DNA from: Naegleria gruberi
Taxonomy: Eukaryota
NCBI GenBank assembly: GCA_000004985.1
Contig: GG738847.1
Direction: 5' to 3' (one strand)
Length of the DNA stretch: 64,000 nt
This document shows, in pieces, positions 7,601 through 59,701 of the stretch. How positions within the stretch are numbered: the stretch's first letter is position 1; each line of letters begins with the position of its first letter. Both the position numbers and the translations under genes were made by a program. A model generated the notes under the pieces. That model was not told where the DNA came from and searched no databases. It worked only from the letters and a program-made list of their open reading frames with translations.

Positions 7601-10600
7601 TGGACATGGTAACTGCATTGATCATGATCTTTGTTCATGTAATGATGGATACACTGCTTCATTGAATTGTTCACTTCCAATATGTTATGGATTAGATTCT
7701 AGTCAGCTAATTGTTTGTTCTTCACATGGACAATGTTTGGCTCCAAATAATTGTTCATGTTTTGATGGTTTTACATTCGATAATTGTTCAATTCCAATTT
7801 GTTACAATATTGATGCTTCCAATAGTTCAGTGTGTACTGGATTTGGTGAATGTTATTCTCCAAATAATTGTAAATGTCATGAAAATCATATTGGATTACA
7901 ATGTGAAATTCCAATTTGTTTTGGAGTTCCATCAAATGAAACTCAGTCGTGTAATGGTAATGGACAATGTATTCAATATAATGAATGTGTGTGTCATTTA
8001 GATTATACAGGACTCAATTGCTCCATTCCAATATGTTTTGGAAGTAATGCCACCAACCCAACTGTTTGTTCTTCGCATGGCGTTTGCCAAGCACCAGATC
8101 AATGTCAATGTCATGAAGGATATACTGGAATACAATGTGAAATTCCAATTTGTTTCAACATTCCAGCAACCAATTCCAGCACATGTTCATTCCATGGAGA
8201 ATGTATCGACCATAATCTTTGCACATGTCATGATGGATACACTGCTGCATTGAATTGCTCCCTTCCAATATGTTATGGATTAGATTCTAGTCAATCAATG
8301 GTTTGTTCTTCACATGGTCAATGTTTGGCTCCAAATAACTGTACATGTTTTGATGGTTTTACATTCGATAATTGTTCCATTCCAATTTGTTACAACATAG
8401 ATGCTTCCAATAGTTCAGTATGTAGTGGATTTGGTGAATGTTATTCTCCAAATAATTGTAAATGTCATGAAAATCATATTGGATTACAATGTGAAATTCC
8501 AATTTGTTTTGGCGTGCCATCAAATGAAACTCAAGCTTGCAATGGTAACGGACAATGTATTCAATATAACGAGTGTGTGTGCCACTCAGATTATACAGGA
8601 ATAGACTGTTCAATTCCAATATGTTTTGGAATTAATGCTACTAATCAAAGTCATGTTTGTTTTTCACATGGTATTTGTCAAAAACCAGATCAATGCCAAT
8701 GTCATGAAGGATATACTGGAATGCAATGTGAAATTCCAATTTGTTTCAATATTCCAGCTATTAATTCCAGCACATGTTCATTCCATGGAGAATGCATTGA
8801 TTTCAATCATTGTTCTTGTCATGATGGATACACTGCTTCATTGAATTGTTCACTTCCAATATGTTATGGATTGGATTCTAGTCAGCTAATGGTTTGTTCT
8901 TCACATGGTCAATGTTTGGCTCCAAATAATTGTTCATGTTATGAAGGATATACAGCTGAAAATTGTTCCATTCCAATTTGTTACAACATTGATGCTTCCA
9001 ATAGTTCAGTATGTAGTGGATTTGGTGAATGTACTTTTCCAAATAATTGTAAATGTCATGAAAATCATGTTGGATTACAGTGTGAAATTCCACTTTGTTT
9101 TGGCGTGCCATCAAATGAAACTCAGTCTTGCAATGGTAATGGACAATGTGTTCAATATAATGAATGTGTGTGTCATTCAAATTATACAGGAATAGATTGC
9201 TCAATTCCATTATGTTTCAATATCAATGCCACCAACCCAACTGTTTGTTCTTCGCATGGTATTTGTCAATCACCAGATCAATGCCAATGTCATGAAGGAT
9301 ATACTGGAATGCAATGTGAAATTCCAATTTGTTTCAACATTTCAGCTAATGATTCCAGTACATGTTCATCCCATGGAGAATGTATCGATTTCATGATCTT
9401 TCACTGTCATGATGGATACACTTCAGCAAATTGTTCAATTCCAATATGTTATGGATTAGATTCTAGTCAATCAATGGTTTGTTCTTCACATGGACAATGT
9501 TTGGCTCCAAATAACTGTACATGTTTTGATGGTTTTACATCTGATAATTGTTCAATTCCAATTTGTTACAACATAGATGCTTCCAATAGTTCAGTATGTA
9601 GTGGATTTGGTGAATGTTACTTTTCCAAATAATTGTAAATGTCATGAAAATCATGTTGGATTACAGTGTGAAATTCCACTTTGTTTTGGCGTGCCATCAA
9701 ATGAAACTCAATCTTGCAATGGTAATGGACAATGTGTTCAATATAATGAATGTGTGTGTCATTCAAATTATACAGGAATAGATTGCTCAATTCCATTATG
9801 TTTCAATATCAATGCCACCAACCCAACTGTTTGTTCTTCGCATGGTATTTGTCAATCACCAGATCAATGCCAATGTCATGAAGGATATACTGGAATGCAA
9901 TGTGAAATTCCAATTTGTTTCAACATTTCAGCTAATGATTCCAGTACATGTTCATCTCATGGAGAATGTATCGATCATGATCTGTTGCACATGTCATGAT
10001 GGATACACTTCAGAAAATTGTTCAATTCCAATATGTTATGGATTAGATTCCAGTCAGTCAATGGTTTGCTCCTCGCATGGCCAATGCTTAGCTCCAAATA
10101 ATTGTTCGTGTTTTGAAGGTTTTACATTCGATAATTGTTCCATTCCAATTTGTTACAACATAGACGCCACCAACCAATCAGTATGTAGTGGATTTGGTGA
10201 ATGTTCTTCTCCAAATAATTGTAAATGTCATGAAAATCATGTGGGATTACAATGTGAAATTCCGCTATGTTTTGGAATTGCATCAAATGAAACTTTGGCA
10301 TCGTGCAATGGAAACGGCCATTGTTTTGCAGTGGATTCTTGCTCTTGTAATCAAAATTATACTGGAGCCAATTGTTCTATTCCTATTTGCTTTGACTTCA
10401 ATGCCACCAATTCGAAGGTATGTTCGGGACATGGAAGTTGTTCGAAACCAAACTATTGCGAATGTTTTGAAGGTTATATGGACACCCAATGTGAAACTCC
10501 AATTTGTTTTGATATTCCAGCAACTATGAATAATACCTGTTCTGAAAATGGCATTTGCCAAGATTACAATCATTGTAATTGTAGCTCTGGGTTTACTTCT

Positions 10601-13600
10601 TCAAATTGTTCAATTCCTATTTGTTTCGGTTCGAATGCCACTGACGAAACAGTATGTTCCTCACATGGTCAATGTCTTTCTCCTAATAATTGTTCCTGCA
10701 GTGATGGATACATGCATTCAGATTGTTCTCATCCAATTTGTTTCGGGCTTGAATCAACTAATCGAAACTCTTGTTCTACTCATGGCACTTGCATTTCACC
10801 AAATTCATGTCAATGTGATGGCAATCATGTAGGTGACATGTGCGAAATTCCACTTTGTTTCAATATCCCGGCCAATCATAACTCAACTTGCAGCTCAAGT
10901 GGAAAATGCATTGGTGTGAATTTGTGTGAATGTTATGGAAATTTCACAGGAATGAACTGTTCTGTTCCAATTTGTTTTGATGAGAATTCAACTTCCATTA
11001 TGAGTTGCTCGTCGAGAGGAAGATGTATTGGACCCAACCTGTGTGAATGTCAAGTTGGATATACTGGTAGCGTTTGTGAGTATCCTGTTTGTTACGGTTT
11101 CTATTCGGAAGATGTAAATTCATGTTCAGGACATGGAGAATGTATTGACTATAACAAATGTCAATGTGAAAATGGGTACGTTACTGAGAATTGTTCCATT
11201 CCTGTGTGTTTTGGTTTGAATAGTTCAGATTCCAATGTTTGTGCTTCCCATGGCGATTGCTTGTCACCAAATAATTGTTCATGCCATGAAGGATTTACAT
11301 CAATCAATTGTTCCATTTCAATTTGTTATAATTCACCTGCCACTGACCCATTTGCATGCAATGGAAAAGGAAATTGTGTAAATCCAAATGAATGCGCCTG
11401 TCAAGAAGGTAACATAGGATTACAATGTGAGATTCCACTTTGTTTTGGCGTGCCATCAAATGAAACTCAGTCTTGTAGTGGTAATGGAGAATGTATTCAA
11501 TATAATGAATGTATGTGTCATTCAAATTTTACAGGACTCAATTGTTCCATTCCAATATGTTTTGGTATAAATGCCACTGATCAAAGTCACGTTTGTTTTT
11601 CACATGGTATTTGTCAAGAACCAGATCAGTGTCAGTGTCATGAAGGATATACTGGAATACAATGTGAAATTCCAATTTGTTTCAATATTCCAGCAACCAA
11701 TTCCAGTACCTGTGCATCCAATGGAGTTTGCATTGATTTCAATAATTGTTCTTGTCTTGATGGATACACTTCGGAAAATTGCTCCCTCCCAATATGTTAT
11801 GAATTGGATTCTGGTAAATCAATGGTTTGTTCTTCACATGGTCAATGTTTGGCTCCAAATAATTGTACATGCCTTGAAAGATTTACATTCGATAATTGCT
11901 CCATTCCAATTTGTTACAATATTGATGCTTCAAATAGTTCAGTATGTAGTGGATTTGGTGAATGTTCTTCTCCAAATAATTGCAAATGTCATGAAAATCA
12001 TATTGGATTACAATGTGAAATTCCACTTTGTTTTGGAATTCCATCAAATGAAACTCAGTCGTGTAATGGTAATGGACAATGTATTCAATATAATGAATGT
12101 GTGTGTAATTCAGATTATACAGGAATAGACTGTTCAATTCCAATATGTTTTGGAAGTAATGCCACCAACCTAACTGTTTGTTCTTCGCATGGTATTTGTC
12201 AATCACCAGATCAATGTCAATGCCAAGAAGGATACACAGGTACCAACTGTGAAATTCCCATTTGTTTCAACATTCCAGCTAATGATTCCAGTACATGTTC
12301 ATCCAATGGAGAGTGCATTGATTTCAATAATTGTTCTTGTCATGATGGATACACTTCAGAAAATTGTTCAATTCCAATATGTTTCAATTTGAATAGTACT
12401 GATTCTAGTGTTTGTAACTCTAATGGAATTTGTACTTCCCCTGACAAGTGTCAATGCCAAGAAAATTTCACAGGTGAAAATTGCTCAATTCCAATATGTT
12501 TCGGATTGGCAGCAAACTCAAGCGGGGCATGCTCCGCATCTGGAAGTTGTGTTTATCCCAATACATGCCTCTGCAACCAAGGAATCATTGGCATTAATTG
12601 TGAAATACCTTCCTGTTTTGGAATATTCCAAAATAATAGCCAATCCTGCTCAGGAAATGGAATTTGCATTGAACTGAACAAATGCTCATGCTACCTAAAC
12701 TTCACAGGTGAATCCTGCTTAATTTCTGCATGTAATGGTATTGCCTCTAATGATAGCTCTGTTTGTTCCGGAAAAGGAAAATGCACAGCTCCAAATCTTT
12801 GTGAATCATGTGAGGAAAATTACTTTGGAGAATGGTGTGAAATTTCACAATGTTTTGGAATATTCTCGAATCAGAGTCAAGTTTGTTCTGAAAATGGAAA
12901 GTGTGAATCTTACAATAATTGTAATTGCTCAATGGGTTATGTTGGGGAAAATTGTAATATTCCTGTATGCTTTAAAATTAATTCAACCGATGAAAATGTT
13001 TGTAATTCTAATGGAATTTGTACTTCTCCTGATTTGTGTTCATGTAATTCCAAATATGGAGGTTTAGAATGTTCAGAACCGAAATGTTTTGGAAAAACAA
13101 CATTAGAAGGTGCATGCAGCTCGAAAGGTAATTGCACACAACCAGATTCATGTACTTGTGAGAAAGGTTTCTTTGGTATTTCATGTGAATTGCATTCTTG
13201 TTTTGGAATTCAATTGAATGATTCGAGTGTGATTTGTTCTGGACATGGTGAATGCAAATCTCTGGACGAATGTGAATGTGACAGTGGTTACTTAGGTGAA
13301 TCATGCTCCATCCACACCTGTTTTGGGATTACATTCAATGAGAGTGGTGTTTGCAGTGGAAATGGAAGTTGCTCAAGTTTGGACAACTGTACCTGTTATG
13401 GAGATGGAAAATTCTATGCAAATTGTACTTTAATTCCAAGTGATTCTCCAATAATTGATAGTGATGTACCTTCGAATCATACAGAAATATCCAATAATTC
13501 AAGTTCTTATCCAAATTGCTTTAACATTTCGGCAAATCATTCGAATGTTTGCAATGGAAATGGAAATTGCACAAGTGAAAATGAATGCAAATGCAGAGAG

Positions 13601-15835
13601 GGATATTTTGGTGGGGAATGTTCTCTATTTGCATGTTTTGGAAAGGAATCAGCTGATTCAAGTGTTTGTTCATCCAATGGAATATGCGCGAGTCCAAATA
13701 CTTGTAAATGTCGACCAGAAAGATATGGCTCTCAGTGTCAACTTGTCAAATGTTTTGAAATTCTTTCTAATCAGTCCAATGTTTGTTCCAGTAAGGGTTC
13801 ATGTCAAGATACCAACGCATGCATATGTAATGAGGGCTATTTCGGCCCCATGTGTAATATCACAAGTTGTGAAGGAATTTTGAGTAATAATTCTCAAGTT
13901 TGTAATGGAAGTGGACAATGCACTCATTACAACACTTGCCAATGTAAGGAAGGATTCATTGGATTGAACTGCCAATTCACCAAATGCAACTCTACATCGT
14001 GTAGGCATGGAAGTTGCATCACTACCTCTCAGTGTGAATGCGAAAGTGGATGGACAAGCTCGGAATGCAATCTTCCTATTTGTTACGATTTGTTGGCAAG
14101 TGACTCGAATGTTTGTTCTACACATGGCAAATGTATAGCTCCAAATAAGTGTAACTGCTCCACAAATCCATTGTACATGGGTGATAAGTGCCAATACTTA
14201 CAATTAGATAGTTTGCAATGTAGTATTAATCCATCACTCAATTTGATACCAATTGAGTGGACAATTTCAGGATTGGATAAAATAACATTTGATATGAGCT
14301 CGAAGGAAATACTTGTTAGAAACAGTATCCCATACAGTACATCTCTCCATTCCAAATCAAAATTCAACTACGAGCTCAATATTTACAACACTGGAAAGCG
14401 ATCTTTCAATTATCAAATTAATTCATTCTGTGAAAATGGAATTTCATTCAAACAATTGGGAATTTCTTCTCAATTCGGATTATTACAAGAAGGAAACAAT
14501 GCAAATATTAAGGATTTACAAAATATTGGATTTGCTCTCTTTTGGAATGATGAAAGTTTGAAATATGAAGATATTAAATGTCATGTCGAATTAATAGTCA
14601 ATCCGAAAGATCAATTCGATGAATGTCAACACTACGATTCGAATACTGAAACATCCTCCAAATATAATATTACTCTCATATTGGAACGTACAAATGTTTG
14701 TCAATTTTTGAAAGAAACAGATTTACCACTGACCTTTTCAAGCACTCAATTGTCAACCATGAGTGAAATAGCTCTAATTGATGAAAATATTCTTTCAGAT
14801 AACGATATTCTCAAAATTATTAATACATTCACTCAAAAGAGGAATAACTGGCAAATAATTAATAAGGACAACAGTACTCTTCAAGCTAACATCTTGTTAA
14901 CTGCCCAGTTGAGTAATCCAAACAATGAATTGGGACTTTTTGTTCCATCTCTGATATGTAAGGATGAAAGAATTGTTGATGACATAGAATTTACCACAGA
15001 ATATCTTTCCAATCAATCTCCATTCTCCATTTCTCACTCTCTACAAAAGATTCAATTCCAATTCAATGTTACAATTAAGAATGTTTCGAATTATGTTGAT
15101 TATGGTAGAGTGAGAGGAGGAAAGGAAGGAATGGCAACAGTTCTCATTGAGGACATGCTCCTTAATTGTTCTCTCATTCTCCTACCAAATCCATCTGAGT
15201 GTTGGTCCAACACGAATAGAAATTCCACATTCTCCAAATATATCATTTCACACTTTACACTGCCAATTGTTTCTGGTGAATTTTCATTCTTCCAAGCTGT
15301 GAGATCCTTCGAAATAGGTATCATTACACTTACCTACACTTGTATGGGCATTGGTTTTGCATCCATGATATGCACGACCAAAGTTCCTCGAGATCGAAAA
15401 CATTCTCTGCTCCAACTTGTAGAATTTGTCAAGGAAAAGAGAAGAAACAAACTCAACTCTACATCTGATGACTCCAAACCACTCCTAGAGAATCAAATTG
15501 ATAGGCCATACTGTGAAAATTGTGGTCATCACACTCGGAAGAAAGCTCGTTATGCCATTCGTGTGGAAAATTATGATGCTAATTGCGAAATGTTCATTTG
15601 TGAGAATCAGGTATGTTTTGAAGCCATGATCTCTCTCCACAATAGAGGATACTCCCATCACTATCAATGTTTCGACTTGGATAAAGAAGAAGATTGTCAA
15701 CTCATGATTGAAACACCATTCAAGACACTTGCTGATAATTTTGATGAGTCGGATATTTATGAATCTATGGATATTGAATTTCCAATACCTTCCGATATCA
15801 ATGATGATGAAGAAGATGACTCTGATTTATTCTAA
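4654..15835 (+). CDS. Giant type-I transmembrane protein (~3,700 aa). Signal peptide, ~750-aa non-EGF N-terminal region, ~58-60 tandem tenascin-type EGF-like modules, a TM helix and a Cys/His-rich cytoplasmic tail. The reading frame is interrupted twice (near 9613 and 9985)
   Basis: Exon 1 is 4654..4807 (ATG in aaaaaaaATG context; signal peptide FIFLLILIILSISFINA). Intron is 4808..4929 (GTAAGG...ACAG). Exon 2 starts at 4930 in the frame of track ORF 4863..9632. Modules follow C-x-(I/V)-P-(I/L)-C-(F/Y)-x(5-8)-C-x(2)-(H/N)G-x-C-x(4)-C-x-C-x(2)-G-(Y/F)-T-(G/A)-x-x-C. Track ORFs 4863..9632 (frame 0), 9577..9999 (frame +1) and 9812..15835 (frame +2) are consecutive pieces of the same repeat array, separated by two 1-nt insertions. 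The TM helix is GIITLTYTCMGIGFASMICTT; the tail CENCGHH...C-x(n)-C is zinc-finger-like. Stop TAA is at 15833-35. Confidence 0.7.
7550..12840. repeat. Higher-order tandem repeat (~587 bp = 5 EGF modules) within the giant EGF gene
   Basis: Anchor gaaattccaatttgtttcaa recurs at 7551, 8139, 8730, 9318, 9904, 11664 and 12251. Copy 9043-9400 is near-identical to 9629-9990. The middle units (10000-11600) are more diverged. Confidence 0.8.
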
Positions 15836-36239: not shown

Positions 36240-36482
36240 TTTTTTTTGATATTATTAGGATTCGTTGTTGAAAGGGAGAGGTCATTACTTATTCGAAATG
36301 GTGATGATTATCTTGATGATTATAATAAGTAGTATCTCATGAGATTTGGCATTATAATAATTTGAATGGGTTGTTTATAAAATCATTAGATTCCATTGTA
36401 CTTGAATCTCAACTTGCAATTTACTAGAAAAATAAATTGTAAACAAAATTGGACAAATCAAGTTGAGAAAATCAAAATGTAA

Positions 36483-36553
36483 GGGGGCGAGGGGGAATCG
36501 AACCCCCGGCCACAGCTTTGGAGGCTGCGATGTTACCATTACACCACCGCCCC
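36483..36553 (-). tRNA. tRNA-Trp (anticodon CCA), 71 nt, no encoded CCA
   Basis: Cloverleaf folded by hand. Acceptor GGGGCGG/TCGCCCC (G7-U66). D arm GTGT-AATGGTA-ACAT. Anticodon stem GCAGC/GCTGT with loop CTCCAAA (U33, C34-C35-A36, A37). T arm GGGGG-TTCGATT-CCCCC. Discriminator C. Confidence 0.75.
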
Positions 36554-40880: not shown

Positions 40881-42302
40881 TTACCATTCCAAAGATCTTT
40901 TGGATAGAGATTTCAAAGTTGGACTATTTTCAGAGTAGAATTGCGAATACCATCTTCTAAATTGACCTATTGGTCCATCAGTTCTCACCAACACTGGCTT
41001 TGGAAGATAGGTTTTGGTATTCCAAATTGGAATGTCTTGTTCCACAAAGGAGGTCATCAAGATTAAAAACCACTTGGCAAAGAATCTAGGAATATACCAA
41101 GGAACATAGAGAACATGTTCAACATGTTGATGAAGAGGGCCAACTGGAGTTACGGTCTGAACGAGATCAAACTTTCCTAAAATTGTAGAAAACTCAAACA
41201 TGACCAAACCAGGTCCATATTGACCTCCCTTTACATCCACAACACTGAATGGAATTTTCAACCTATCATTCATGGCAGTTGAAACGTGTTGAACTTGAAA
41301 GTAAGCCACATGGGAATCTTCCTTCTTTTCACCTTTTTGCCACTTGGCTCCCCAAATATTCCACACAAATCCAAAAGTATTTCTCATTTCTCTATGGACA
41401 ACATTTAAATGATTGGCATCTGGTCCATTCTCTGGAATTTCCTGAATATGACAATAGATGTGATGAGCAATCTTTCCATGTGTGAAGAGATTTTGTCTTA
41501 CTGATGGTGGTTGCCAATGAGGTTCACGACCCTCTGCATCAAACCACAAATAGACGTTATCATTTCTTTCAATAATTGTATAACTCTTGGTGTGGGCTTG
41601 TGATGGAATGCCATCTCTATGTTCACACTCTTCCACTTGTTCACAAGATTCAGCCAATTTTCCACTCTTGTTTTTTGCAATATCAAGAGTTGAATCTTGA
41701 ACAGATAGCTCACTTTTGAATTGACCATTCTTTTTCAAAATTGGCATTGGAAGTGGAGAATCACCAACGGAAACACATTTTCCCTCTCCATTGAATGACC
41801 AATGATGAAATGGACATGTCAAACATTCACCATTGACACTTCCCAATGACAGATTAGCTCCCAAATGAGTACAGTAAGCATCGATAGCATGAACTGTTTT
41901 GGAATGTTGAGCTCTATAGACAGCTAGTTCTAGACCTAACATGCTCTTGTAGATTACTTGTCCAGGGGAAAGATCCCATGAATTGCAGATTTTGAACCAT
42001 CCATTTGGATAAACTGGTGGAAAGTCACCAATTCTCTTTCTACTCTTGGAAGCCAAGAAGGAAGTTCTGGTGGATGGTTTCATTTCGGAAAGTTTAGGTT
42101 CAAGATCAATGAATCTATCAAGAGGATGAAAGAATGAAGAGTAAACTTCCGAAATCAAACTCTTTAATAATTTCCATACAATTGCAAGCACAATAATTGA
42201 AACTCCCAATATGCAAATGTTATTAAAGCTTGTAATATTTTCCACATCAATTGATTGATAAATTTTGGAAAGTGACTGATGGAAGAGAGTTTCGTCTTGC
42301 AT
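40881..42302 (-). CDS. Rieske [2Fe-2S] non-heme-iron oxygenase, Neverland/DAF-36-like (putative sterol C7-desaturase)
   Basis: 473 aa; ATG at 42302. N-terminal TM helix ICILGVSIIVLAIVWKLL. Rieske motif CTHLGANLSLG...CPFHHW. Mononuclear-iron motif D-A-N-H-L-N-V-V-H. Confidence 0.7.
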   Translation of the reverse strand: MQDETLFHQSLSKIYQSIDVENITSFNNICILGVSIIVLAIVWKLLKSLISEVYSSFFHPLDRFIDLEPKLSEMKPSTRTSFLASKSRKRIGDFPPVYPNGWFKICNSWDLSPGQVIYKSMLGLELAVYRAQHSKTVHAIDAYCTHLGANLSLGSVNGECLTCPFHHWSFNGEGKCVSVGDSPLPMPILKKNGQFKSELSVQDSTLDIAKNKSGKLAESCEQVEECEHRDGIPSQAHTKSYTIIERNDNVYLWFDAEGREPHWQPPSVRQNLFTHGKIAHHIYCHIQEIPENGPDANHLNVVHREMRNTFGFVWNIWGAKWQKGEKKEDSHVAYFQVQHVSTAMNDRLKIPFSVVDVKGGQYGPGLVMFEFSTILGKFDLVQTVTPVGPLHQHVEHVLYVPWYIPRFFAKWFLILMTSFVEQDIPIWNTKTYLPKPVLVRTDGPIGQFRRWYSQFYSENSPTLKSLSKRSLEW

Positions 42303-42558: not shown

Positions 42559-43161
42559 ATGTCTCAAAACCTTCTCACGGCTGCCACTACCATGAACAAT
42601 CACGAAGAAGAGCTTGAAGTTCCAGGCTTTTCATGGATTATAGAATCGGAATTGGCTGGTATGAAATTTCCATCCCTTCCCGAACATTACAAAAATTTAA
42701 ATCATCATCACATTGGTTTGGTGATTTGTGTGAATGAGAGGGTAGCTTCCTTTGTTGAACAATTACCTCATTCAGAATATTTTAATTTAATTTCTAAAAA
42801 ATTACAAAAAATAGAAAATTGTGAAGAATTTACTTATAATGTTGGAAAATTGAATATTGCTCATTTTCCTATTAATGATTATGGAGTTCCTAATATGGAA
42901 TTAATGAATGAAATGATAAAATTGGTAGAATATGTGAGAAAGGTGGATTCGAACAGGGGAATTGTTGTGCATTGCATGGCTGGACTTTCTAGGACTGGAA
43001 TGATTCTGGCATGTTTGTTGGTGAGAGTATGGAAAATGACATTTGAGGAGTCAATCAAGTTGGTCAATCAGAAGAGAGGAAGAAATGGTAGAGGAGTAAT
43101 GACTAGCAAGCAAGAAGCATTTGTGGAAGATTTTTCAAAGACTATTCCTAATATTCAATAA
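42559..43161 (+). CDS. Dual-specificity protein phosphatase (small DUSP, DUSP23-like)
   Basis: ATG at 42559 (aaaaaaaATGtct). Catalytic loop VVHCMAGLSRTGMILACLLV. Confidence 0.75.
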   Translation: MSQNLLTAATTMNNHEEELEVPGFSWIIESELAGMKFPSLPEHYKNLNHHHIGLVICVNERVASFVEQLPHSEYFNLISKKLQKIENCEEFTYNVGKLNIAHFPINDYGVPNMELMNEMIKLVEYVRKVDSNRGIVVHCMAGLSRTGMILACLLVRVWKMTFEESIKLVNQKRGRNGRGVMTSKQEAFVEDFSKTIPNIQ

Positions 43162-43224
43162 GATTACTATTTTTAAATACTATTTCGAATCTTACTAATT
43201 AAGAGCTAAAAATTTACTTCTTGA

Positions 43225-44097
43225 ATGCGTCGACCGGGAATTGAAATTTCCTTTTTTGGAATTCATTTAACTTTTAATTTTATGATGAAATTATGAATGT
43301 TTTATTTTAATATTATTCATGATGTGAAACATCATGTTGAATTCTGTTCATAATATTTAATTCATGATGTGAAACATCATGTTGAATTATTAACAAATGT
43401 TGTTCTTCAATTTTTAATTGAATGTTGTTCTTTCATTGAATGTTGGAAATATTGGAAAGTTGGAAATAAAAGTTGGAAGTTAGGTAACGGGTTATGGAAT
43501 TACCTAATGTGGAAATTGAATTCAATTTTGAAATTGAATTAATACAATGTTTTTTAAATTATTATTATTTAAATGTATTTCACACATTAATTTTGATAAT
43601 GTAATATTAAAGATATTGATAATTGGGTATAGGGAAACGGAATTTCCTAATTGGGAGTCATCACACAATAAATTAAATTTATTATTTATTCATTGATGAT
43701 GTTCACAAACTTTGAATTAACATATTACATGATGAATCAATTACAAAATTAACATCACTATTATTCTGGGGGCAAAATGAACATTAACCATCGGGTAACG
43801 GAAATTGACACATATACCACTTAATTAACAAATTGAATATTAACCATCGGGTAACGGATTTTAATACATGTATTAGTATGTTGATAATTGGTCGACGCAC
43901 AGAAATTTAAATAAACAGAATTAACAAGAATAAAAGCAAAATCCTACATAAGAGTTGGAGAACGGGAAATGAAATTCCCAAATTGAGAAACACAACATGC
44001 ACAATCACAATAATTCATACTATCAAAATGAATTGAACCCGGGTCACGGCGATGGCAACGCCGTATTCTACCACTAAACCATCGACGCTTCTTATTA
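43225..44097 (-). pseudogene. tRNA-Gly (anticodon GCC) gene interrupted in the T-loop by a ~785-bp insertion
   Basis: The 5' part (44097->44030, minus strand) is GCGTCGATGGTTTAGTGGTAGAATACGGCGTTGCCATCGCCGTGACCCGGGTTCAATTC. It gives a perfect acceptor, D and anticodon arm (loop TTGCCAT) plus the 5' T-stem. The 3' part (43244->43225) is TTCAATTCCCGGTCGACGCA. It supplies the T-loop, 3' T-stem, the acceptor 3' strand pairing GCGTCGA, and discriminator A. The 8-nt TTCAATTC is present at both junctions. Confidence 0.75.
43245..44029. mobile_element. Non-coding ~785-bp insertion within the tRNA-Gly gene, flanked by an 8-bp direct duplication (gaattgaa on the + strand); likely a non-autonomous insertion or repeat element of unknown class
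   Basis: No ORF. Content: AT-rich; direct repeat of a 28-bp unit, each with a 7-bp-stem hairpin (catgatg-tgaaa-catcatg) at ~43315-43400; five degenerate copies of a CGGGAAnTGAAA / GGAAtTTCC-type motif; aaccatcgggtaacgga twice; and a GGTCGACGCA fragment in opposite orientation at ~43891-43900. No clear TIRs. Confidence 0.5.
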
Positions 44098-44139: not shown

Positions 44140-44838
44140 CTAACCAGATTTTTTACAGAAAATCCATTCCAATCCTTCATACAAATTACTCTCATTATCC
44201 GAATGTAGCACCACCATCGTATTCTCCTTCTCATATTCTTGCTCCATAAACTTCTCCACAAATTGTTTAGCCTCCAATGCACGTACTATATGGTCATTGG
44301 TTCTGTGATCCGAATAAATAACAAATAAAATAGGTCGAAAATTCTTCTTCTTTTCAGGAGGAATGAAAAAATAATCATTTTGCCTTTCCACACTATCATC
44401 ACATTTTGCACGTTTTATCATGTCTTTCAATGAAAACATATAGCCATCGAATACTTGTTCAACAGTTTGTGGCCACAATGAATGAATTCTAATCCAAATC
44501 ACAAGTGCATCTCCTCCTTTAATATAATTCGGATACAAGTATTTAATATGAGTATATTTGGAAACATCTCGATCTTCAATAAAGAAATTTTTAAATTCTG
44601 TTTTATAGATTCGAGATTCTTCTTTTATCGGAGAATGTTCATCTGTGATGTGATTTGATTCATAGAGCAGTTTAGCAATTTCCTTATATCCTTCTGCAGA
44701 TACTCCAGAAAAGGAAAAGACAAAAAACTTTTTCTGTGGTCGCCCTACATAATCATAGATTGAATATAAAAATCGATAGATACTTGATGAATAGAGCATC
44801 TGATCAAATTGTTCCAGCAGATCACTAAAATCCATCAT
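44140..44838 (-). CDS. Hypothetical protein (232 aa)
   Basis: First ATG (aaaaaaATGATGgat) is 39 nt inside track ORF 44140..44877. No recognisable family. Confidence 0.45.
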   Translation of the reverse strand: MMDFSDLLEQFDQMLYSSSIYRFLYSIYDYVGRPQKKFFVFSFSGVSAEGYKEIAKLLYESNHITDEHSPIKEESRIYKTEFKNFFIEDRDVSKYTHIKYLYPNYIKGGDALVIWIRIHSLWPQTVEQVFDGYMFSLKDMIKRAKCDDSVERQNDYFFIPPEKKKNFRPILFVIYSDHRTNDHIVRALEAKQFVEKFMEQEYEKENTMVVLHSDNESNLYEGLEWIFCKKSG

Positions 44839-45216
44839 TTTTTTAATATTTTTAATTTTAAATAAAATATTAATCAAATACTCTCATGCTCTACTTTGCT
44901 TTGGTTCTCTCTAAGTGTCATTCTATTTCTGATCATGAAAATTAAATGTTGAAAAATAGAGTTGATGGTAATGGTTGTAAAATCAGATTCAATTTTAAAA
45001 TGGCGCCTAAATTTTGAATATTTGTTACAATAAAACTGTGAGCCAATCAAAAAGTACCAATTCAGAAGTTCTGGGATAGTTGCTGATGGTTGTGCAACAC
45101 GCGCTAAAAATCCGTGCTCGACTGGAGATTTTGAAAAATGCCTCAACAAACATTTATAATGTCAAATGATAACAGTCAACTGTCCAGTATGTTAAAAAAA
45201 ACAACAACATTAAATA

Positions 45217-45868: not shown

Positions 45869-47965
45869 TTAATATCTGCTAATAAAAAGCCATGCATTTG
45901 GTTCTTTACCAGTTATAACACAAACATCCCCAGACTCAATTTTAGGGAATCTATCCACAAGATGTTGGTTAGACAATTCTGAAAATTTTGAATATCCTCT
46001 AAATTCAGCATTTGTTTTCTTGTAAAAATCCTCTTCCACTTCATGAATCCTATCCCACAACTCTTCACTAATATGGATTGGAGCAACAACATGCCAGAAT
46101 GGCGAATTAGTAATTGTCTTGGCATTGTATTCCATTTGTTGCTTTTTTCTCATCTTTGGATCTGTGCTTTGTAAGTTTTGTTTGAATTTTTCGTTAAAGG
46201 TTGAAATTAATTCTTCCATAGATTGAGCTTTTACAATTTGCACTCTATTCAAAATTGATTCCTTCAAATGTGAATCTTCCTTATCTAGTAGAGAACTGAT
46301 CATTTCGAAATTGACTTCATTGGCAGGAATTGTAGATTTCTTCAAACTATTTCTTCCCTTGATTGTAATGGTACTTCCTTCCAACTCTTGTTTTCCAATT
46401 GATACTACAAGTGAAACTCCTTTACTCTCCCACTGATAGAACTTTTCCACATTCTTGGTTGCATATCTCATATCGGCATGAACTCTAAAACCAAATGATT
46501 TGAGTTTCTTCTCCATGCTCCTCACATTCTCATACAATATATTGGTATCACAAGATTTACTGAGCATTGGAACAATAACTATTTGATACTTGTTCATGGT
46601 AGAGTGCAGTCTCAACCCCTTGTCATCTGAGCATGAAGCTGCACAAGCTCCAAGAATTCTAGAAGATATATTGCCACAAGTTTGAAAAATTGGCTGAACA
46701 AATATTTGAGATCAATACATGTTGTGAAAAATGTGAATAACTTACAGAAGTGAAATTATCTTGTTTCAATCTATACACGATATTGTACACATCTGAAAAT
46801 ATCCTTCCATAATACTTTCATTAAATGAAACAAATTAAAGTAGAATTCACTTGAAACAACTTACATTAGTTCTTGCAATATTTACACTAGTATTTACAAA
46901 AGGTAGACTCACATCAAACACAATGGCTTGTTTACAATGTGAGAATGCCTTCCAAGGGAAGAGATGATAGCTAATACCATTCCACAAATTACAAACATTC
47001 AATAGAACTGGAAGGTAAACTCTATTCCACATTATGTCATTCATATAAGAAAGAGCATTCTCCTCTGATTCGTGACAGGTATGAATTTCATGCTGATATT
47101 GCTCCTTATTTCCATAAAACAATGGCAATTGAATTCCCTCATCACTCATTACTTGTTGAAAATTCTTTGTCTTACAAATCACCTTATATGGTAACTGAAT
47201 ATAACTCCTTATAATATTCTTAAGGTATGGGAAGATAGCCCACTCACTATTTGGTTTCAAATAAACATTTGGATAATTAAACTTCATTTCATAATCCTCA
47301 TAAATATATCCTCTACTAAGTGAAAACAATTTAGGATCCATCACATGTTGAAATGCATTGACATTGAATAATGAATTTGTTTCCTTAACCTCTTCCATTA
47401 TACTATCAACTTCAACTTGTGATGATTCATTCCACTCTGGTTCTTCATAATCATCAAATCTAACCAATGGATCAGCACCCAATTCCATCATGGCCGAATT
47501 ATTATTATTACTATTATTCATCAATTGTTGTTGATATTCTTCACCATCTTCCTGTTGTTGACTTCTTGGATTTGGATTACTATTTGATAAGGGTTGATCT
47601 CTCAAACTAACCAGCATGGGTAAATCAATCCTCTCCAATTTCTTCTCTTCTATGGCTCCGATCATTGTCTTTTGTGAGGAGGTTATTCCTTCATCCTTAT
47701 TAGAGGAGGAATCTTGATCGGAAGAGGTTTTCAGAATTTCATCAATTAATTTGGCCTTTTCCAAAGCTTCCTCCTCATCAAATCTTTCATCCACTTTGCC
47801 AAATAATTTATCCATCAATTCAAGTGCCTGTTCCTTCCAAATGATGTGTCCATCGAGTGAGTATCGTTCATCCACAAAATTCAAAATCATTGGAGAGGTA
47901 CTCCACTCCTGAAGCCAAGCTTGAAATTGTGTTAGCTCGACGGTGGTTATTCCTTGAGAAGACAT
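45869..47965 (-). CDS. Divergent prolyl-tRNA synthetase paralog (eukaryote/archaeal-type ProRS architecture); 2 exons; catalytic motif 2 and Zn-binding Cys degenerate
   Basis: Exon 1 is 46865..47965 (ATG at 47965; ends ...VNIARTN|GTAAGT). Intron is ~46694..46864. Exon 2 is 45869..46693 (PIFQTCGNISSRILGACAASCSDDKGLRL..., anticodon-binding domain FRVHADMRYATKNVEKFYQWESKGVSLVVSIGKQEL, C-terminal domain ending ...WLFISRY*). This aligns to human ProRS along catalytic, anticodon-binding and C-terminal domains. Motif 2 reads VMSDEGIQLPLFYGNKEQYQHEIHTCHES (canonical [27 protein letters not shown]). The canonical C-terminal CxC...C Zn ligands are absent (canonical CVCGKNPAKYYTLFGRSY). Confidence 0.7.
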
Positions 47966-54721: not shown

Positions 54722-57700
54722 TTAAAGCTCTGATAAGCCCATCGATAATCGCACCAACTTTCTCAATTTTCCATAAAATTGGTCTAATTTTTCAGAATCA
54801 ATACTGTTGGCATCTGTTGCTGAATAGAATTGTTCTTCTCGCTGTCTGATATATGCAGATACATTATATCTAAGGAGAAGTCTGTCAGATTCATCAAGTG
54901 ACTCTTCTTCATCTGAGTCAGAGGTTGAAAGTGTTGAATATGTTGAACAACCATTACCAATTAAATGTTTGAGGTTTTTCAATAATAAAAAGAAAGATGC
55001 ATCTCTAACTCCCCATATGACCAATAAACTTGGTAAGATACATAATGAAATAGCAATTAGAGCTACCAAATAAAACAATGAATAATCTCCCAATACTAGG
55101 AAAACTCTCCACAATCTTCCTTCCAAATGTCCCAAATTTCCTCCCAAAAACGACATGCTATTAACAATAAGGAATACACAAATACTTAATCCCATTATAA
55201 CAGTTGATAATCTCAGATTTAGTAAAGAAGGGGATGGTTTTTGAGTGATACCAGGATGGAATTTTACATGATTACACCTTTCCATTATCATAACTGTTAG
55301 ATATTGTACAGAAACAATAATAAAAATCATCAAACTATTAATATGCTCCAAATCATTTTTAAATTTCCCAAATCTAGATATTTCAATATTTAGAGAATTT
55401 TCATGAAAATTTTGAGGTCTACTCAAAATATTGGCTCCATAATAACCAATTCCAAAGCAAGTGAATAATACAATAATAAAACCTTGATAGGCAGCATTCA
55501 AAAACCATAAAAATAAGCTGGTTTGTGTTAAGGTTTCTCCTCTTCTGGAGGATCTGTATAGCTCTGGAATCTTTTCTAGAGCCATATCAGAAACTTCAAA
55601 TGAATGTCCATTATTAGCACTTCCCAATTTAAGTGAAGCTGGAGTAATGTACCGTATTAAATCTCCAATTCTCACATCCCCCATAGAAAATGCAAATGGC
55701 ACAACACTAGTATAAAGGATGTTATAAAAAACCAGAGAATGGGATTGTAAAATAGTATTTCCACTGAAATAGGTGAAAAGTAAATTATAAACAAGCTGGC
55801 ATGCAGCCAAAACAACTGATTTGTACATGGTGTACTGTGAAATGAGAGCCAATCTCTTGTAACTGTTTCTTCCATGCACAAGTAAGAGACGTTTCAACAT
55901 ACTAAATCTTGGAATGCCAAAATCAGCTGCTCTAACAGCCTGTAAATGTTCTGACTCTGTATTGACCTCTTGATGAGTTTCTTGATCTATTTTGGCACTC
56001 GAACTGATACCAATACCAACATCTGCCTCTAGAATCATGTTACAATCATTTCCACCATCTCCAATAGCCAAACAAATTGGAGAGGAGAGCGATTGAAGTC
56101 TATTGTTGGAATCTTCTGAGGAGAGCGGATATTTAATGAGTCTGACAATCTTTCCTTTCAATTTGGGAGTCATTCTGCAGCTAACACATGCATTCACTGA
56201 TTTGCAAAGCTTTAAAAAAGTTGAAACATTCTCCAAATCTGTTGACTCTTGTTCATCCAATATGAAATTCAATACTCTTCCTTCAAATACTAAACATTTG
56301 AAAATATTAGATTCCAATTCATCGTATTTTTCTGAAATTATTCTCAGAGAATCTCTAACAGAGGAGAAGGAATTTCCTTTCAGATGGGATATATCGATTA
56401 AATCTTGATGTAATGAAGGAACCAGATGACAGGCATGAGCAATTTGTACAGCTGTTTCCATCTTGTCACCTGTGAGCATCCAAATAGAGATTCCAGCCTC
56501 TCTCAAGCTATCAATACACTCACCAACTCCTTCTTGAAGTTTATCTTCCATAGCAGTGGCTCCATGTAACAGAAACTCCTTCTCTATTGAATCGACAATT
56601 GGTTGTTGTTCTCCTTCTTCCATTTGTGAAATTGTTTCCAGGAAAGTGGTGACTTCCTCCATAGCAAGCTCTTTACCAGCCATAAGCATTACTCTAAGTC
56701 CTTCTTTCGAGGCAAGATTCTGAATGTGACTCAAGGTTTCTTGTAGTATTTCAGCATTTGCTTGATTGTTCATCCTCTCACAAATAACATCATCTGCTCC
56801 CTTACAGAAAATATAATATTTACACTGGTTTGGATCGTCAGATATTCTTTTTACAATTATGGACATTCTTCTTCTATCTGAAGTGAAGTGAATTACTTTC
56901 AATATATTATATTCCTCCAAAGTAAAATTATTAGCATCTGAATGGATTCTCAAAATCATTCTTTCCTCATCTCTGTAATTTAAAACAACTCCTTGATATG
57001 CTGCATATTTGACAAAGGCATCCTCTTCGGGCGAGCTCGATCTGTAATGTGGCAAGAAGGATCCACTTGTTGAATTGTCGCAATAAACTGTATGGCAAAG
57101 GGCCAAATTTCTCAGGAAGGACAATGTGCTCTCTGTAAAATTACATTGCTCATTGAGGAAACCAATTTTGTGAGTATTTATGCTGGTAGGATGATGAGAA
57201 ACTGAGGCATCAACAACCTTTCCATCAACAATAACTCTAGAGAGTGTCAATAAATTCTCTGTTAGGGTACCTGTCTTGTCACTGAAAATGTAATCTATTT
57301 GACCCAAGTCCTCTGCTACAGAAGTATTGGATGCACTAGTTCTATTCCCCTGAGCATCACATAAAAGGTCATCTTTTGGTATGAAAAACATTGAGATAAT
57401 GTACTTGGCTACATCTGACGTGATTTTCAAAGATTGTGGAATCATTAGAGAGCATAACATGGTAAATCTCAGAGGTATGATTAGGTAAGGCAATATCTTT
57501 TCAGCAAAATATTCAAGCACATCAAGAATGTAGTAACCAGTGACAAGCTTGGAATGTTGAAAATCTACGGCCGTATTAAGATAAAACATATTCTTTCCAT
57601 TATTAAAATAGAGATAATTGCCAATTAATCCAAAGGCCAATCCAATAGAAAACTGGACAATAAAAATTCCAACTACTACATGGTTGATAAAGTTATCCAT

Positions 57701-59446
57701 CTTGGTCCATTTCATTTCAACTTCCTTTCTATTCATTCCAATTTTTGTTTCATTTCCAGTATAAATTACTACAGCCAAAGCAGATGCGGTACTTTTCAAT
57801 GTTGTGCCTTGTAATAGTAAATTATTAGATGTGACTGAAAACCTGTCCATTCTATTCTTGTAGGGTACGATTATTTCACCTTTGAAATGATCCAAATCTG
57901 CATTAGGAGCATTACATTCAATAATACATGAAAAGTCATTTACCATTGATACTTCACTTTCACCACTGGAGGTAGTTAAAAGTTTCTGGATTGCACCAAT
58001 AGATTTCTTCTCCTTGTAGTGAGATTCTCCATCGAGAGCACTTGTTTCCACCCAGGCAATACCACCTGTTACTGTGGAAAAGCCTTCTTTTTTCAGGACA
58101 TTGCTTGAATGAATGAGAACCATATCAGCTCTAATCTGTTCATCATCTTGCAGATAGACAATATCTCCTGCTTGTAGTTGATAGGAAGGAATTGTTTCAG
58201 TTTTTCCATGTCTGATAATTGTCACTAATTTGCTATTAATTTCAGAGTCCTTCTGATATCTAAACAAATCATCCACTAGCTCCTTAGCTACTCCGACTGT
58301 CACGACCAATATTAAGGGAATCCACGTCGTACTTTAAAATTATGTTAAGAATGTTTCTAACTTTTTGAACTCTTATACTCACATTGGATTAGTTGGACTG
58401 GCAGCTTTCCAAAACTGAAGACAGGCCAATGCCAAAAAGTACTGATTCATTCTTAATGAAAATTGAGCACTAATACTCTTCCACAAGAAGTTGTACCATC
58501 TATACTTAGTATTACTAATTGTATTGTCAGAATATCTGGGATAATTAAAATTTCGTTCTCTTGAAAATTCTTTCCTTATTTGAATGGCTTCAGTCAATTC
58601 CTGTAAAGAATGGTATTGTTCAGAAAAGATAAATTTCCAAAAGTAATCAATTAATTCTTGCCAAAACCTTTCGAACATGGCTCTACTTTGAAACATTCCC
58701 AGTGCTGTTCTATATACAGATGCTGTTGCATGACCAGTGCTGGAATTTGCTGATGAAGTCGAAGACCTATCGTCCAATAATACAATTTGTGAATATTCAT
58801 TACATGAACAACTCGAATAAATTAAAGATCCAACTATATAAATTACATTCTTTACACAAATATTAACCAAAATATTTGTGACTTGATAAATTATTAAACA
58901 TATTAAACTTGTTATATACATTAACATTGTTTTTTGCTTGGCAAATGATTTTGCAAAATTTACAATTCTTCTTCTACCATTATTTACAGAGGGAGCAATT
59001 ACCTGATCATGATAATGTTCATGTATCAGCTGTTCCCTCTCAAAACAATGTGATTCTACATTTCCATAAATTATTCTTCGTTTTCCTTTTTGTTCCGAAT
59101 CAAATTCCTCCATAACAAGTACTGACGATGGTTGTATTTGTTCATAATCATCAGAATAATTAATATTTGACTCATCGCCATTGTTAGAAATTTCCTCTTC
59201 CTGATAATAGGCAATCTCTCCTCCTGATAATGATGAAGATGGACTTGACACCTCTTTCATAGTAGATGAACGATCTTTTCCATCATCCCGATCATCTTCC
59301 AATGTTTTACTATTATTTATTGTTGATGATGTTAATGTTGATGGATAACTATTCTCATCATCGTCATTGTTGGATGATTTCCATCCTCCTTTACTGGCTG
59401 CCACTGATGTTCGAGAGAGAATGGTTCCTCCACCATTTGTATTCAT
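54722..59446 (-). CDS. P4-type ATPase (phospholipid flippase); 2 exons, ~1,557 aa
   Basis: Exon 1 is 58383..59446 (ATG aaaaaaaATGaat; NTISNTKYRWYNFLWKSISAQFSLRMNQYFLALACLQFWKAASPTNP; donor AT|GTGAGT). Intron is 58332..58382. Exon 2 is 54722..58331 (TTWIPLILVVTVGVAKELVDD...DKTGTLTEN...GDGGNDCNMILEADVGIGI). Confidence 0.8.
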
Positions 59447-59701
59447 TTTTTTTAATTTCACTTCTAAAATTGGGTATTAATGGGTTGTGCTTGGAATTAA
59501 TAATTTAATGTATAATTTAATATTAAATTAAATTGTATTATTTATTGGTTGATTTGAGTGAAACTAATTTTTGAAAATTAATTTTCAATTAATATTAATG
59601 TTGTGTTCGAATATTTATATCACTAAGTTTATAATCTGGATATGTAGTTTCCACATCGAGGACTTGATTTTTTAATCTTTCCTTAAAAAGCTATTCAATA
59701 A

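Follow-up and report, generated by a model that had tools for sequence, protein, structure and literature searches.

An 8-bp duplication flanks 784 bp of AT-rich DNA in the T-loop of a Naegleria gruberi tRNA-Gly(GCC) gene

A 64,000-nucleotide stretch of Naegleria gruberi DNA (contig GG738847.1 of assembly GCA_000004985.1; hereafter the window) holds a copy of tRNA-Gly(GCC) that is interrupted inside its T-loop, with both halves on the minus strand. The explanation we favor, with a probability of about 0.65, is that 784 bp of non-coding, AT-rich DNA, likely a non-autonomous mobile element, were inserted into the T-loop through a cut staggered by 8 bp, leaving a tRNA pseudogene.

The interrupted gene and the duplicated bases

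Joined end to end, the two fragments (Table 1) give a 71-nt sequence which ARAGORN folds into a flawless tRNA-Gly(GCC) cloverleaf with a 7-bp acceptor stem, the T-stem CCGGG/CCCGG, the T-loop TTCAATT and discriminator A. The 5′ fragment contributes the acceptor 5′ strand, the D arm, the anticodon arm with GCC, the 5′ strand of the T-stem and the T-loop plus one further base; it retains the A box (44081–44071) and 10 of the 11 B-box positions. The 3′ fragment supplies the four remaining bases of the 3′ T-stem, the acceptor 3′ strand and the discriminator, the first 3′ T-stem base (C59) being the last base of the right repeat copy. Taken with that copy, the 20-nt 3′ piece is the sole such match in the window (E = 3e-6) and follows the 59-nt piece downstream on the same strand, at a distance of 784 bp, while the probability of the 8/8 overlap by chance is ~1e-5. 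The split arrangement is not due to chance.

The duplicated word, TTCAATTC, comprises the T-loop TTCAATT and the first base of the 3′ T-stem (tRNA nt 52–59), and the breakpoint falls within the B box (tRNA nt 50–60). The duplication is exactly 8 bp long, as the outer neighbors of the two copies differ (G/T before, A/C after).

Metagenome contigs of the Joint Genome Institute (JGI) were scanned with tRNA nt 30–59, the stretch common to split and intact versions, and one contig, L003, was returned. It carries an uninterrupted tRNA-Gly(GCC) gene (L003 207–277) identical to the reconstructed sequence at 71 of 71 positions and at five further upstream bases; the 5′ fragment is matched base for base by L003 207–265 and the 3′ fragment by L003 266–277. 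TTCAATTC is present once in this intact gene, which fixes the breakpoint and shows the 8 bp to be duplicated. The protein-coding gene of L003 did not cluster with any named N. gruberi protein; the contig is therefore a relative or paralogous locus in a Naegleria-like uncultured organism and not the orthologous empty site. A tRNA-Ile(AAT) gene precedes the tRNA-Gly(GCC) gene of L003 by just 87 nt (the pair spans L003 47–277), so tRNA genes are clustered in such genomes.

The Rfam tRNA model gives the interrupted gene in its present form 21.2 bits, short of its gathering score of 29. ARAGORN nonetheless forces a 72-nt tRNA-Gly(GCC) call at 44018–44089 (minus strand), made of the truncated 5′ fragment and 13 nt of the insert. 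Because the truncated gene is still called a tRNA, the locus is mainly useful as an annotation warning: automatic annotation could list a tRNA-Gly pseudogene as a gene.

A first-pass annotation had described a canonical tRNA-Gly(GCC) on the minus strand, broken inside its B box and T-loop, with an 8-bp duplication at both junctions, and had proposed to confirm the breakpoint by alignment to an intact gene. All of this is borne out, the intact gene being that of the relative or paralogue, and only the coordinates need slight correction. The tRNA starts at 44088 and not at 44097, which is 9 nt too far upstream (44097–44089 are upstream flank, TAATAAGAA, outside the tRNA); the 3′ piece with its repeat runs from 43245 to 43226 and not from 43244 to 43225, a shift of 1 nt; and the insert proper measures 784 bp.

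Table 1. Features of the interrupted tRNA-Gly(GCC) locus and its neighbors (window coordinates)
Feature	Position	Strand	Remarks
tRNA-Gly(GCC) 5′ fragment, tRNA nt 1–59	44030..44088	-	GCGTCGATGGTTTAGTGGTAGAATACGGCGTTGCCATCGCCGTGACCCGGGTTCAATTC; 59 nt
tRNA-Gly 3′ fragment, tRNA nt 60–71	43226..43237	-	CCGGTCGACGCA; 12 nt
Left copy of the 8-bp duplication, TTCAATTC	44030..44037	-	last 8 nt of the 5′ fragment
Right copy of the 8-bp duplication, TTCAATTC	43238..43245	-	
Insert proper, 784 bp, 25% GC	43246..44029	-	non-coding, without terminal repeats, many short internal repeats
First T4 run, insert nt 2–5	44025..44028	-	two bases past the truncated B box
Original T5 terminator of the tRNA gene	43208..43212	-	13 nt beyond the discriminator
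tRNA-Gly-like region, insert nt 131–328 (possible relic)	43702..43899	-	words GCGTCGA, CGATGGTT (twice), AGTGGTA, TTCAATT, TTCATTTTG
44-nt tandem pair within the tRNA-Gly-like region, 84% identical	43773–43816 / 43829–43872	-	
Two 34-nt direct repeats, 94% identical, 45-bp period	43310..43388	-	each with hairpin CATGATGTTTCACATCATG
25-nt motif TCYCAATTWGGRAATTYCRTTTCCC	43632–43656, 43964–43988; weaker third copy at 43236–43260	-	first two copies inside the insert
Orphan ORF	44140–44877	-	stop 52 nt upstream of the tRNA, same strand
Dual-specificity (DSP) phosphatase gene	42559–43161		ends 65 nt beyond the tRNA

The inserted DNA and its likely origin

We propose that staggered cleavage, offset by 8 bp, opened the gene at tRNA nt 52–59, TTCAATTC, and that fill-in repair would then have duplicated these bases on both sides, as the form of the duplication suggests. 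The inserted DNA would most likely be a non-autonomous mobile element without terminal inverted repeats, of a class that is not established. With the A box and all but one of the B-box positions kept, RNA polymerase III (Pol III) and TFIIIC would probably still engage at the 5′ fragment; the polymerase would stop at the TTTT just past the B box and release a truncated RNA of ~63 nt, lacking the 3′ acceptor strand and thus presumably non-chargeable. The original T5 terminator, still in place past the 3′ piece, supports this course of events, and two general marks of a transposable element are present, namely the flanking direct duplication and, in L003, an uninterrupted target with a single copy of the duplicated bases.

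As both tRNA halves and the duplication (79 tRNA bases) are free of substitutions, the event is probably recent, conservation being a less likely explanation. A total of 924 tDNAs has been reported for N. gruberi (PMC2888827), so that loss of one tRNA copy costs little. The interruption most likely reflects an insertion that put one tRNA gene copy among many out of action, a fairly ordinary event, and the locus is a new instance of an already known kind of event.

T4 is the first T run behind two of the five intact tRNA genes seen. Two T4 runs, with no T5 or longer, stand behind both the intact tRNA-Trp gene of the window (36453–36553, minus strand) and the tRNA-Ile gene of L003 (L003 119–150), which suggests that T4, possibly paired, terminates Pol III in Naegleria.

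Several results weigh against an insertion of this kind, and the tRNA-like relics, the junction motif and the target sites of Dada elements, taken up below, add to them. An orthologous empty site was not found by way of the orthologues of the Rieske and DSP phosphatase genes in N. lovaniensis, N. fowleri, a close Naegleria in Logan (SRR25266747) and the JGI relative, where these loci had neither synteny nor a tRNA nearby; the DSP phosphatase gene is without an adjoining tRNA in three other Naegleria genomes. Stop-free stretches of the insert do not exceed 62 aa, and it contains no ORF beyond that length and no protein relic. Terminal inverted or direct repeats are absent (ends compared at 30–150 nt, none above shuffled controls), no register of the 8-bp repeat, read from the sequence, gives TG...CA ends, and there is no terminal poly(A), the insert ending in ...AAAAAAGGAAAT on one strand and ...CTATCAAAAT on the other. 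No second copy was found by blastn in the window or in the fetched loci L001–L007, where only short chance matches appeared.

Other searches of the insert were similarly sparse in their yield. Its longest stop-free stretch has no real homologue among 1.8 billion representatives (one marginal low-complexity match), no Rfam family is present at E ≤ 10, group I and II introns and ribozymes included, and viral and prokaryote collections scanned for the insert motifs and the tRNA were empty save one chance 19-mer match. The two ends have only 4 nt in common, ATTT/AAAT.

The candidate classes of mobile DNA were considered in turn. A solo long terminal repeat (LTR) was rejected for want of TG...CA ends and for a duplication of 8 bp versus 4–6 bp, and a non-LTR retrotransposon or short interspersed element (SINE) for want of a poly(A) or simple-repeat tail, of any reverse transcriptase or endonuclease coding relic and of a tRNA-like head at either insert terminus. 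DNA transposons with terminal inverted repeats (hAT, P, Mutator, Merlin and others) were set aside because such repeats are missing, while the 8-bp duplication does fit hAT. A split or permuted tRNA gene was rejected as well, the halves being colinear on one strand and the 3′ piece of 12–20 nt having no promoter of its own. The insert can be assigned to no transposon class, and from its sequence a transposable-element nature is plausible and unproven.

The same lack of transposon hallmarks would suit an origin without any mobile element, either by repair of a T-loop double-strand break with 8-nt overhangs, in the course of which AT-rich DNA from an unrelated genomic or extrachromosomal source was captured, or by local duplications that gave rise to the locus. 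The insert has a GC content (25%) similar to that of other non-coding DNA of the window, in composition and homopolymer content it resembles ordinary non-coding DNA of the genome, and the window holds no second copy. However, clean target duplications of fixed length are the signature of staggered cuts by a transposase or integrase, break repair usually leaves deletions or microhomology, and no donor sequence is present in the window. We consider an origin of this kind improbable.

Tyrosine recombinases have overlap regions of 6–8 bp, and the identical 8-bp word at both junctions could accordingly be read as the crossover core of a Campbell-type integration, in which a small circular DNA was inserted by such an enzyme, either Crypton-like or one that acts on tRNA T-loops in the manner of prokaryotic integrases; the 8 bp would then not be a product of repair. 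The T-stem inverted repeat brackets this core, a classic attB geometry. In addition, the third copy of the 25-nt motif, composed of the last 15 nt of the insert and the first 10 nt of the tRNA 3′ part, straddles the 3′ junction and resembles the two internal copies at 19 of 25 positions (P ~0.02–0.04 ungapped, not significant when gapped). This similarity is weak, however, neither the insert nor the window has a recombinase gene, the element does not rebuild the tRNA 3′ end (ATTTTGATAG follows the left repeat copy), and a 792-bp non-coding circle is without known precedent, making this the least probable of the origins weighed here.

The remaining internal features are descriptive. The 34-nt repeats are situated 65–140 nt from the insert 3′ end. 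The RNA structure score is unremarkable for the 3′ tail (z = -1.0) and stronger for the whole insert (z = -3.9; 20 shuffles); the latter reflects many local palindromes and is not diagnostic. GAATT(C)ATT occurs 13 nt from each insert terminus, which is not above chance, and the tRNA has no copy at that distance.

The tRNA-Gly-like region of the insert bears on whether the presumed mobile element met this target before. It contains TTCATTTTG, the outer 5′ junction word, and may be a decayed relic of a tRNA 5′ fragment joined to an insert start. With lenient gap costs, tRNA nt 11–59 plus the initial ~55 nt of the insert can be aligned to nt 205–328 of the insert across TTCATTTTG, and a second block opens with GCGTCGA (tRNA nt 1–7) at insert nt 132. 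An alignment of tRNA nt 1–59 plus insert nt 1–60 scores 79 versus 41.9 ± 4.3 in dinucleotide shuffles (0 of 1000; z = 8.6). Only the sense-strand Gly tRNA aligns significantly to the insert, which contains 10 sense 7-mers of tRNA-Gly against 2.9 expected (P = 0.006) and 0–2 of the Trp, Ala and Ile tRNAs.

These observations hint at a refinement of the insertion proposed above, namely a target-specific element that recognizes the T-loop and B box of tRNA-Gly(GCC) and has used such a site before, the insert being a composite with a decayed earlier junction. Insertion right behind the B box would set the element after a complete Pol III promoter. The pristine outer tRNA halves and the putative relic of ~73% identity would fit a recent insertion of an old composite, and Dada elements have the same habits, including the carrying of target flanks (PMC3706591, PMC8869645). 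The signal, however, needs lenient gap scoring and loses significance under BLAST-like scoring; nhmmer returns the 5′-junction relic at E = 29; 7 of 952 real non-coding 119-mers score equally against the same target (P about 0.007–0.02); the 3′-junction relic is not significant; and MAFFT puts the gaps of the alignment elsewhere. Moreover, a single locus is involved, and a TTTT in the first bases of the element argues against Pol III read-through. An earlier encounter with the tRNA-Gly T-loop is no more than weakly hinted at (P about 0.01, varying with the scoring scheme) and does not count as a result, and we treat target specificity as a tentative option, more doubtful than probable. The relics also speak weakly against a simple insertion.

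If the 784-bp sequence were found repeatedly in tRNA-Gly T-loops, a B-box/T-loop-specific element from Discoba would join the short list of mobile elements targeting small-RNA genes. As it stands, the locus represents one more insertion-made tRNA pseudogene in a genome where tRNA gene copies number in the hundreds.

The junction motif and the possibility of an intron

The AATT of the T-loop is palindromic, so that base pairing between the two repeat copies is possible. The junctions can thereby form a relaxed bulge-helix-bulge (BHB) motif of the hBH form. Its helix h is the T-stem CCGGG/CCCGG (5 bp), followed by a 3-nt bulge UU^C, helix H of AAUU/AAUU (4 bp), a 1×3 internal loop with UU^C, and helix h′, in which insert nt 1–5 (AUUUU) pair with nt 780–784 (GAAAU; 5 bp). 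Cleavage at its two sites would rejoin U53 to C54, restoring the tRNA exactly. In a 41-nt mini-substrate the motif has an energy of -7.7 kcal/mol versus a minimum free energy of -8.6 kcal/mol.

This motif tempers what the first-pass annotation concluded about the consequences of the event. Its argument that a duplication excludes an intron is weaker than claimed, since the repeat copies and the T-stem fold into a motif restoring the tRNA, and its premise of a 37/38 position for eukaryotic tRNA introns does not hold universally, as Cyanidioschyzon merolae has short T-loop tRNA introns with BHB motifs (PMC3728597). Inactivation of the gene agrees with the score below the Rfam threshold; because the junctions can form the relaxed BHB motif, we infer it rather than demonstrate it. 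The proposed insertion with target-site duplication is likewise supported in its outline, while the transposable-element nature, for which the usual hallmarks are lacking, is not established.

The competing explanation is that the locus is a working gene with a giant T-loop intervening sequence; the tRNA-splicing endonuclease would make its two cuts behind U53 and ahead of C54, and ligation would rebuild the T-loop. Such a sequence may itself have begun as an insertion whose duplication made the hBH motif. The register in which the motif can form is exactly the one needed to restore the tRNA, and by our reasoning from the sequence only 1 of 64 possible 8-bp registers in the tRNA yields such a motif. 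Its energy is within the range quoted for C. merolae BHB motifs, and T-loop BHB introns do occur in that alga (PMC3728597). Both exon parts are 100% canonical. The gene begins 52 nt past the stop codon of the same-strand orphan ORF, in what should be the 3′ flank of that gene, which makes Pol II read-through conceivable, and the tRNA-sense strand of the insert has no T run of 5 or more, with A runs being normal.

The weight of these points is reduced by several others. Helices h and H follow automatically from the 8-bp duplication, so that the motif is not independent evidence, and only h′ is extra (P about 0.06). An intron would make do with the 4-nt AAUU match and does not need 8/8 identity. 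At 792 nt, the sequence is more than tenfold longer than the T-loop tRNA introns described in PMC3728597, and the full-length fold does not favor the hBH motif. Six T4 runs lie on the sense strand, the first at insert nt 2–5 and a tandem pair at nt 89/95, and T4 is, as noted above, the first T run behind two of the five intact tRNA genes. The depletion of longer T runs was discarded as evidence: it is significant against shuffles (P = 0.0015), but 8.5% of same-size real non-coding chunks are likewise without them.

Introns of other kinds were rejected too. Among nine splice registers read from the sequence, none gives GT..AG, GUGYG..AY or a terminal G, so that spliceosomal, group I and group II introns have no end signature in any register, and group I and II introns have no Rfam match. 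As the motif is largely a by-product of the duplication, and given the 792 nt and the six T4 runs, which still make an intron unlikely, we rate a functional intron as very improbable.

Slightly less credible again is a combination of the two readings, a T-loop-specific mobile element whose duplication recreates the BHB motif so that the tRNA-splicing endonuclease can remove all 792 nt. If true, this would be a transposon born as a spliceable tRNA intron and leaving the gene functional; no known tRNA intron would be larger, and it would illustrate, in a living case, how ectopic tRNA introns arise from mobile DNA. Actual cleavage of the junction motif would provide a direct link from transposon insertion to the origin of non-canonical tRNA introns.

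Genomic context and comparison with known systems

The window is gene-dense (33.5% GC), with ordinary eukaryotic proteins among the 20 ORFs scanned with Pfam, and contains two intact tRNA genes. ORFs on either side of the locus encode proteins with 100% identity to those of N. gruberi. The split gene is located between two convergent genes, the orphan ORF and the DSP phosphatase gene. Among 5.8 billion proteins, the sole match to the orphan ORF is the N. gruberi protein itself, and its orphan status offers no route to an orthologous site. With 792 bp removed, the convergent intergenic gap would be 186 bp with a 71-bp tRNA; with them present, it is the longest non-coding stretch of the window. 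As for mobile DNA in the genus, N. lovaniensis carries DNA transposons and LTR elements at a low level, as Naegleria genomes do (PMC6125883).

A gene for a Rieske-type cholesterol 7-desaturase (Neverland/DAF-36-like) is found at 40881–42302 (minus strand). Gene order around it is not kept in N. lovaniensis or the JGI relative (L001, L002), and local Naegleria synteny therefore decays quickly. Farther away, two adjacent giant ORFs of 1589 and 2007 aa (4863–9632 and 9812–15835, plus strand) consist almost wholly of teneurin-type EGF repeats. A P4-type phospholipid flippase is encoded by two ORFs ~70 bp apart (54722–58309 and 58379–59461, minus strand), probably one gene with a short intron. A 248-aa ORF (45869–46615, minus strand) has only the HGTP_anticodon domain of class II aminoacyl-tRNA synthetases, the catalytic domain being absent from that ORF.

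Non-autonomous elements of the hAT, P and Mutator types share with the locus an 8-bp duplication and a small, non-coding, AT-rich insert. Unlike them, it has only ATTT...AAAT ends, without terminal inverted repeats or YARNG ends, and its duplication fits the hAT consensus nTnnnnAn on one half only.

The Dictyostelium elements TRE5, TRE3 and DGLT-A and yeast Ty3 are comparable in that they are mobile, live in compact genomes of protists or fungi and find a safe place to insert at tRNA genes. Their integration sites lie in the upstream or downstream flank of the tRNA gene, which stays intact, whereas here the gene itself is broken. Prokaryotic integrative elements with tyrosine integrases resemble the locus in the T-loop site, the flanking T-stem inverted repeat and the short identical core at the junctions. 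However, such elements encode an integrase and bring along a duplicate of the tRNA 3′ end that makes the gene whole again, and the locus has neither.

The BHB introns of C. merolae likewise interrupt nuclear tRNA genes in the T-loop, and a junction motif of the hBH type restores the tRNA; they are tens of nucleotides long (e.g. 22 nt), transcribed by Pol III and demonstrably spliced (PMC3728597). The Naegleria sequence differs in its 792 nt, its six T4 runs and its 8/8 duplication.

Dada elements are DDE transposons without terminal inverted repeats that insert into tRNA genes, including tRNA-Gly, and into snRNA genes, with duplications of 6–7 bp (sometimes apparently 8 bp), their hosts being genomes rich in such genes (Kojima and Jurka 2013, PMC3706591; Kojima 2022, PMC8869645). 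Their tRNA sites are G/C-rich and lie at nt 8–13 (the A box) or in the anticodon stem (PMC8869645), whereas here the T-loop and B box are hit, and their 6–7-bp duplications contrast with an AT-rich one of 8 bp at tRNA nt 52–59. Neither the insert nor any of the 20 ORFs of the window scanned with Pfam encodes a Dada transposase, PMC3706591 and PMC8869645 report none for Naegleria, and sub-terminal inverted repeats common to insert and target are not convincing. Because of the T-loop site, the 8-bp length and the lack of a visible transposase, we do not claim membership. By analogy, Dada nevertheless appears to be the closest known behavior: a multicopy small RNA gene is hit, terminal inverted repeats are lacking and the target duplication is short, in a family that also has deleted non-coding derivatives and occurs in protists with very many tRNA genes, such as Perkinsus.

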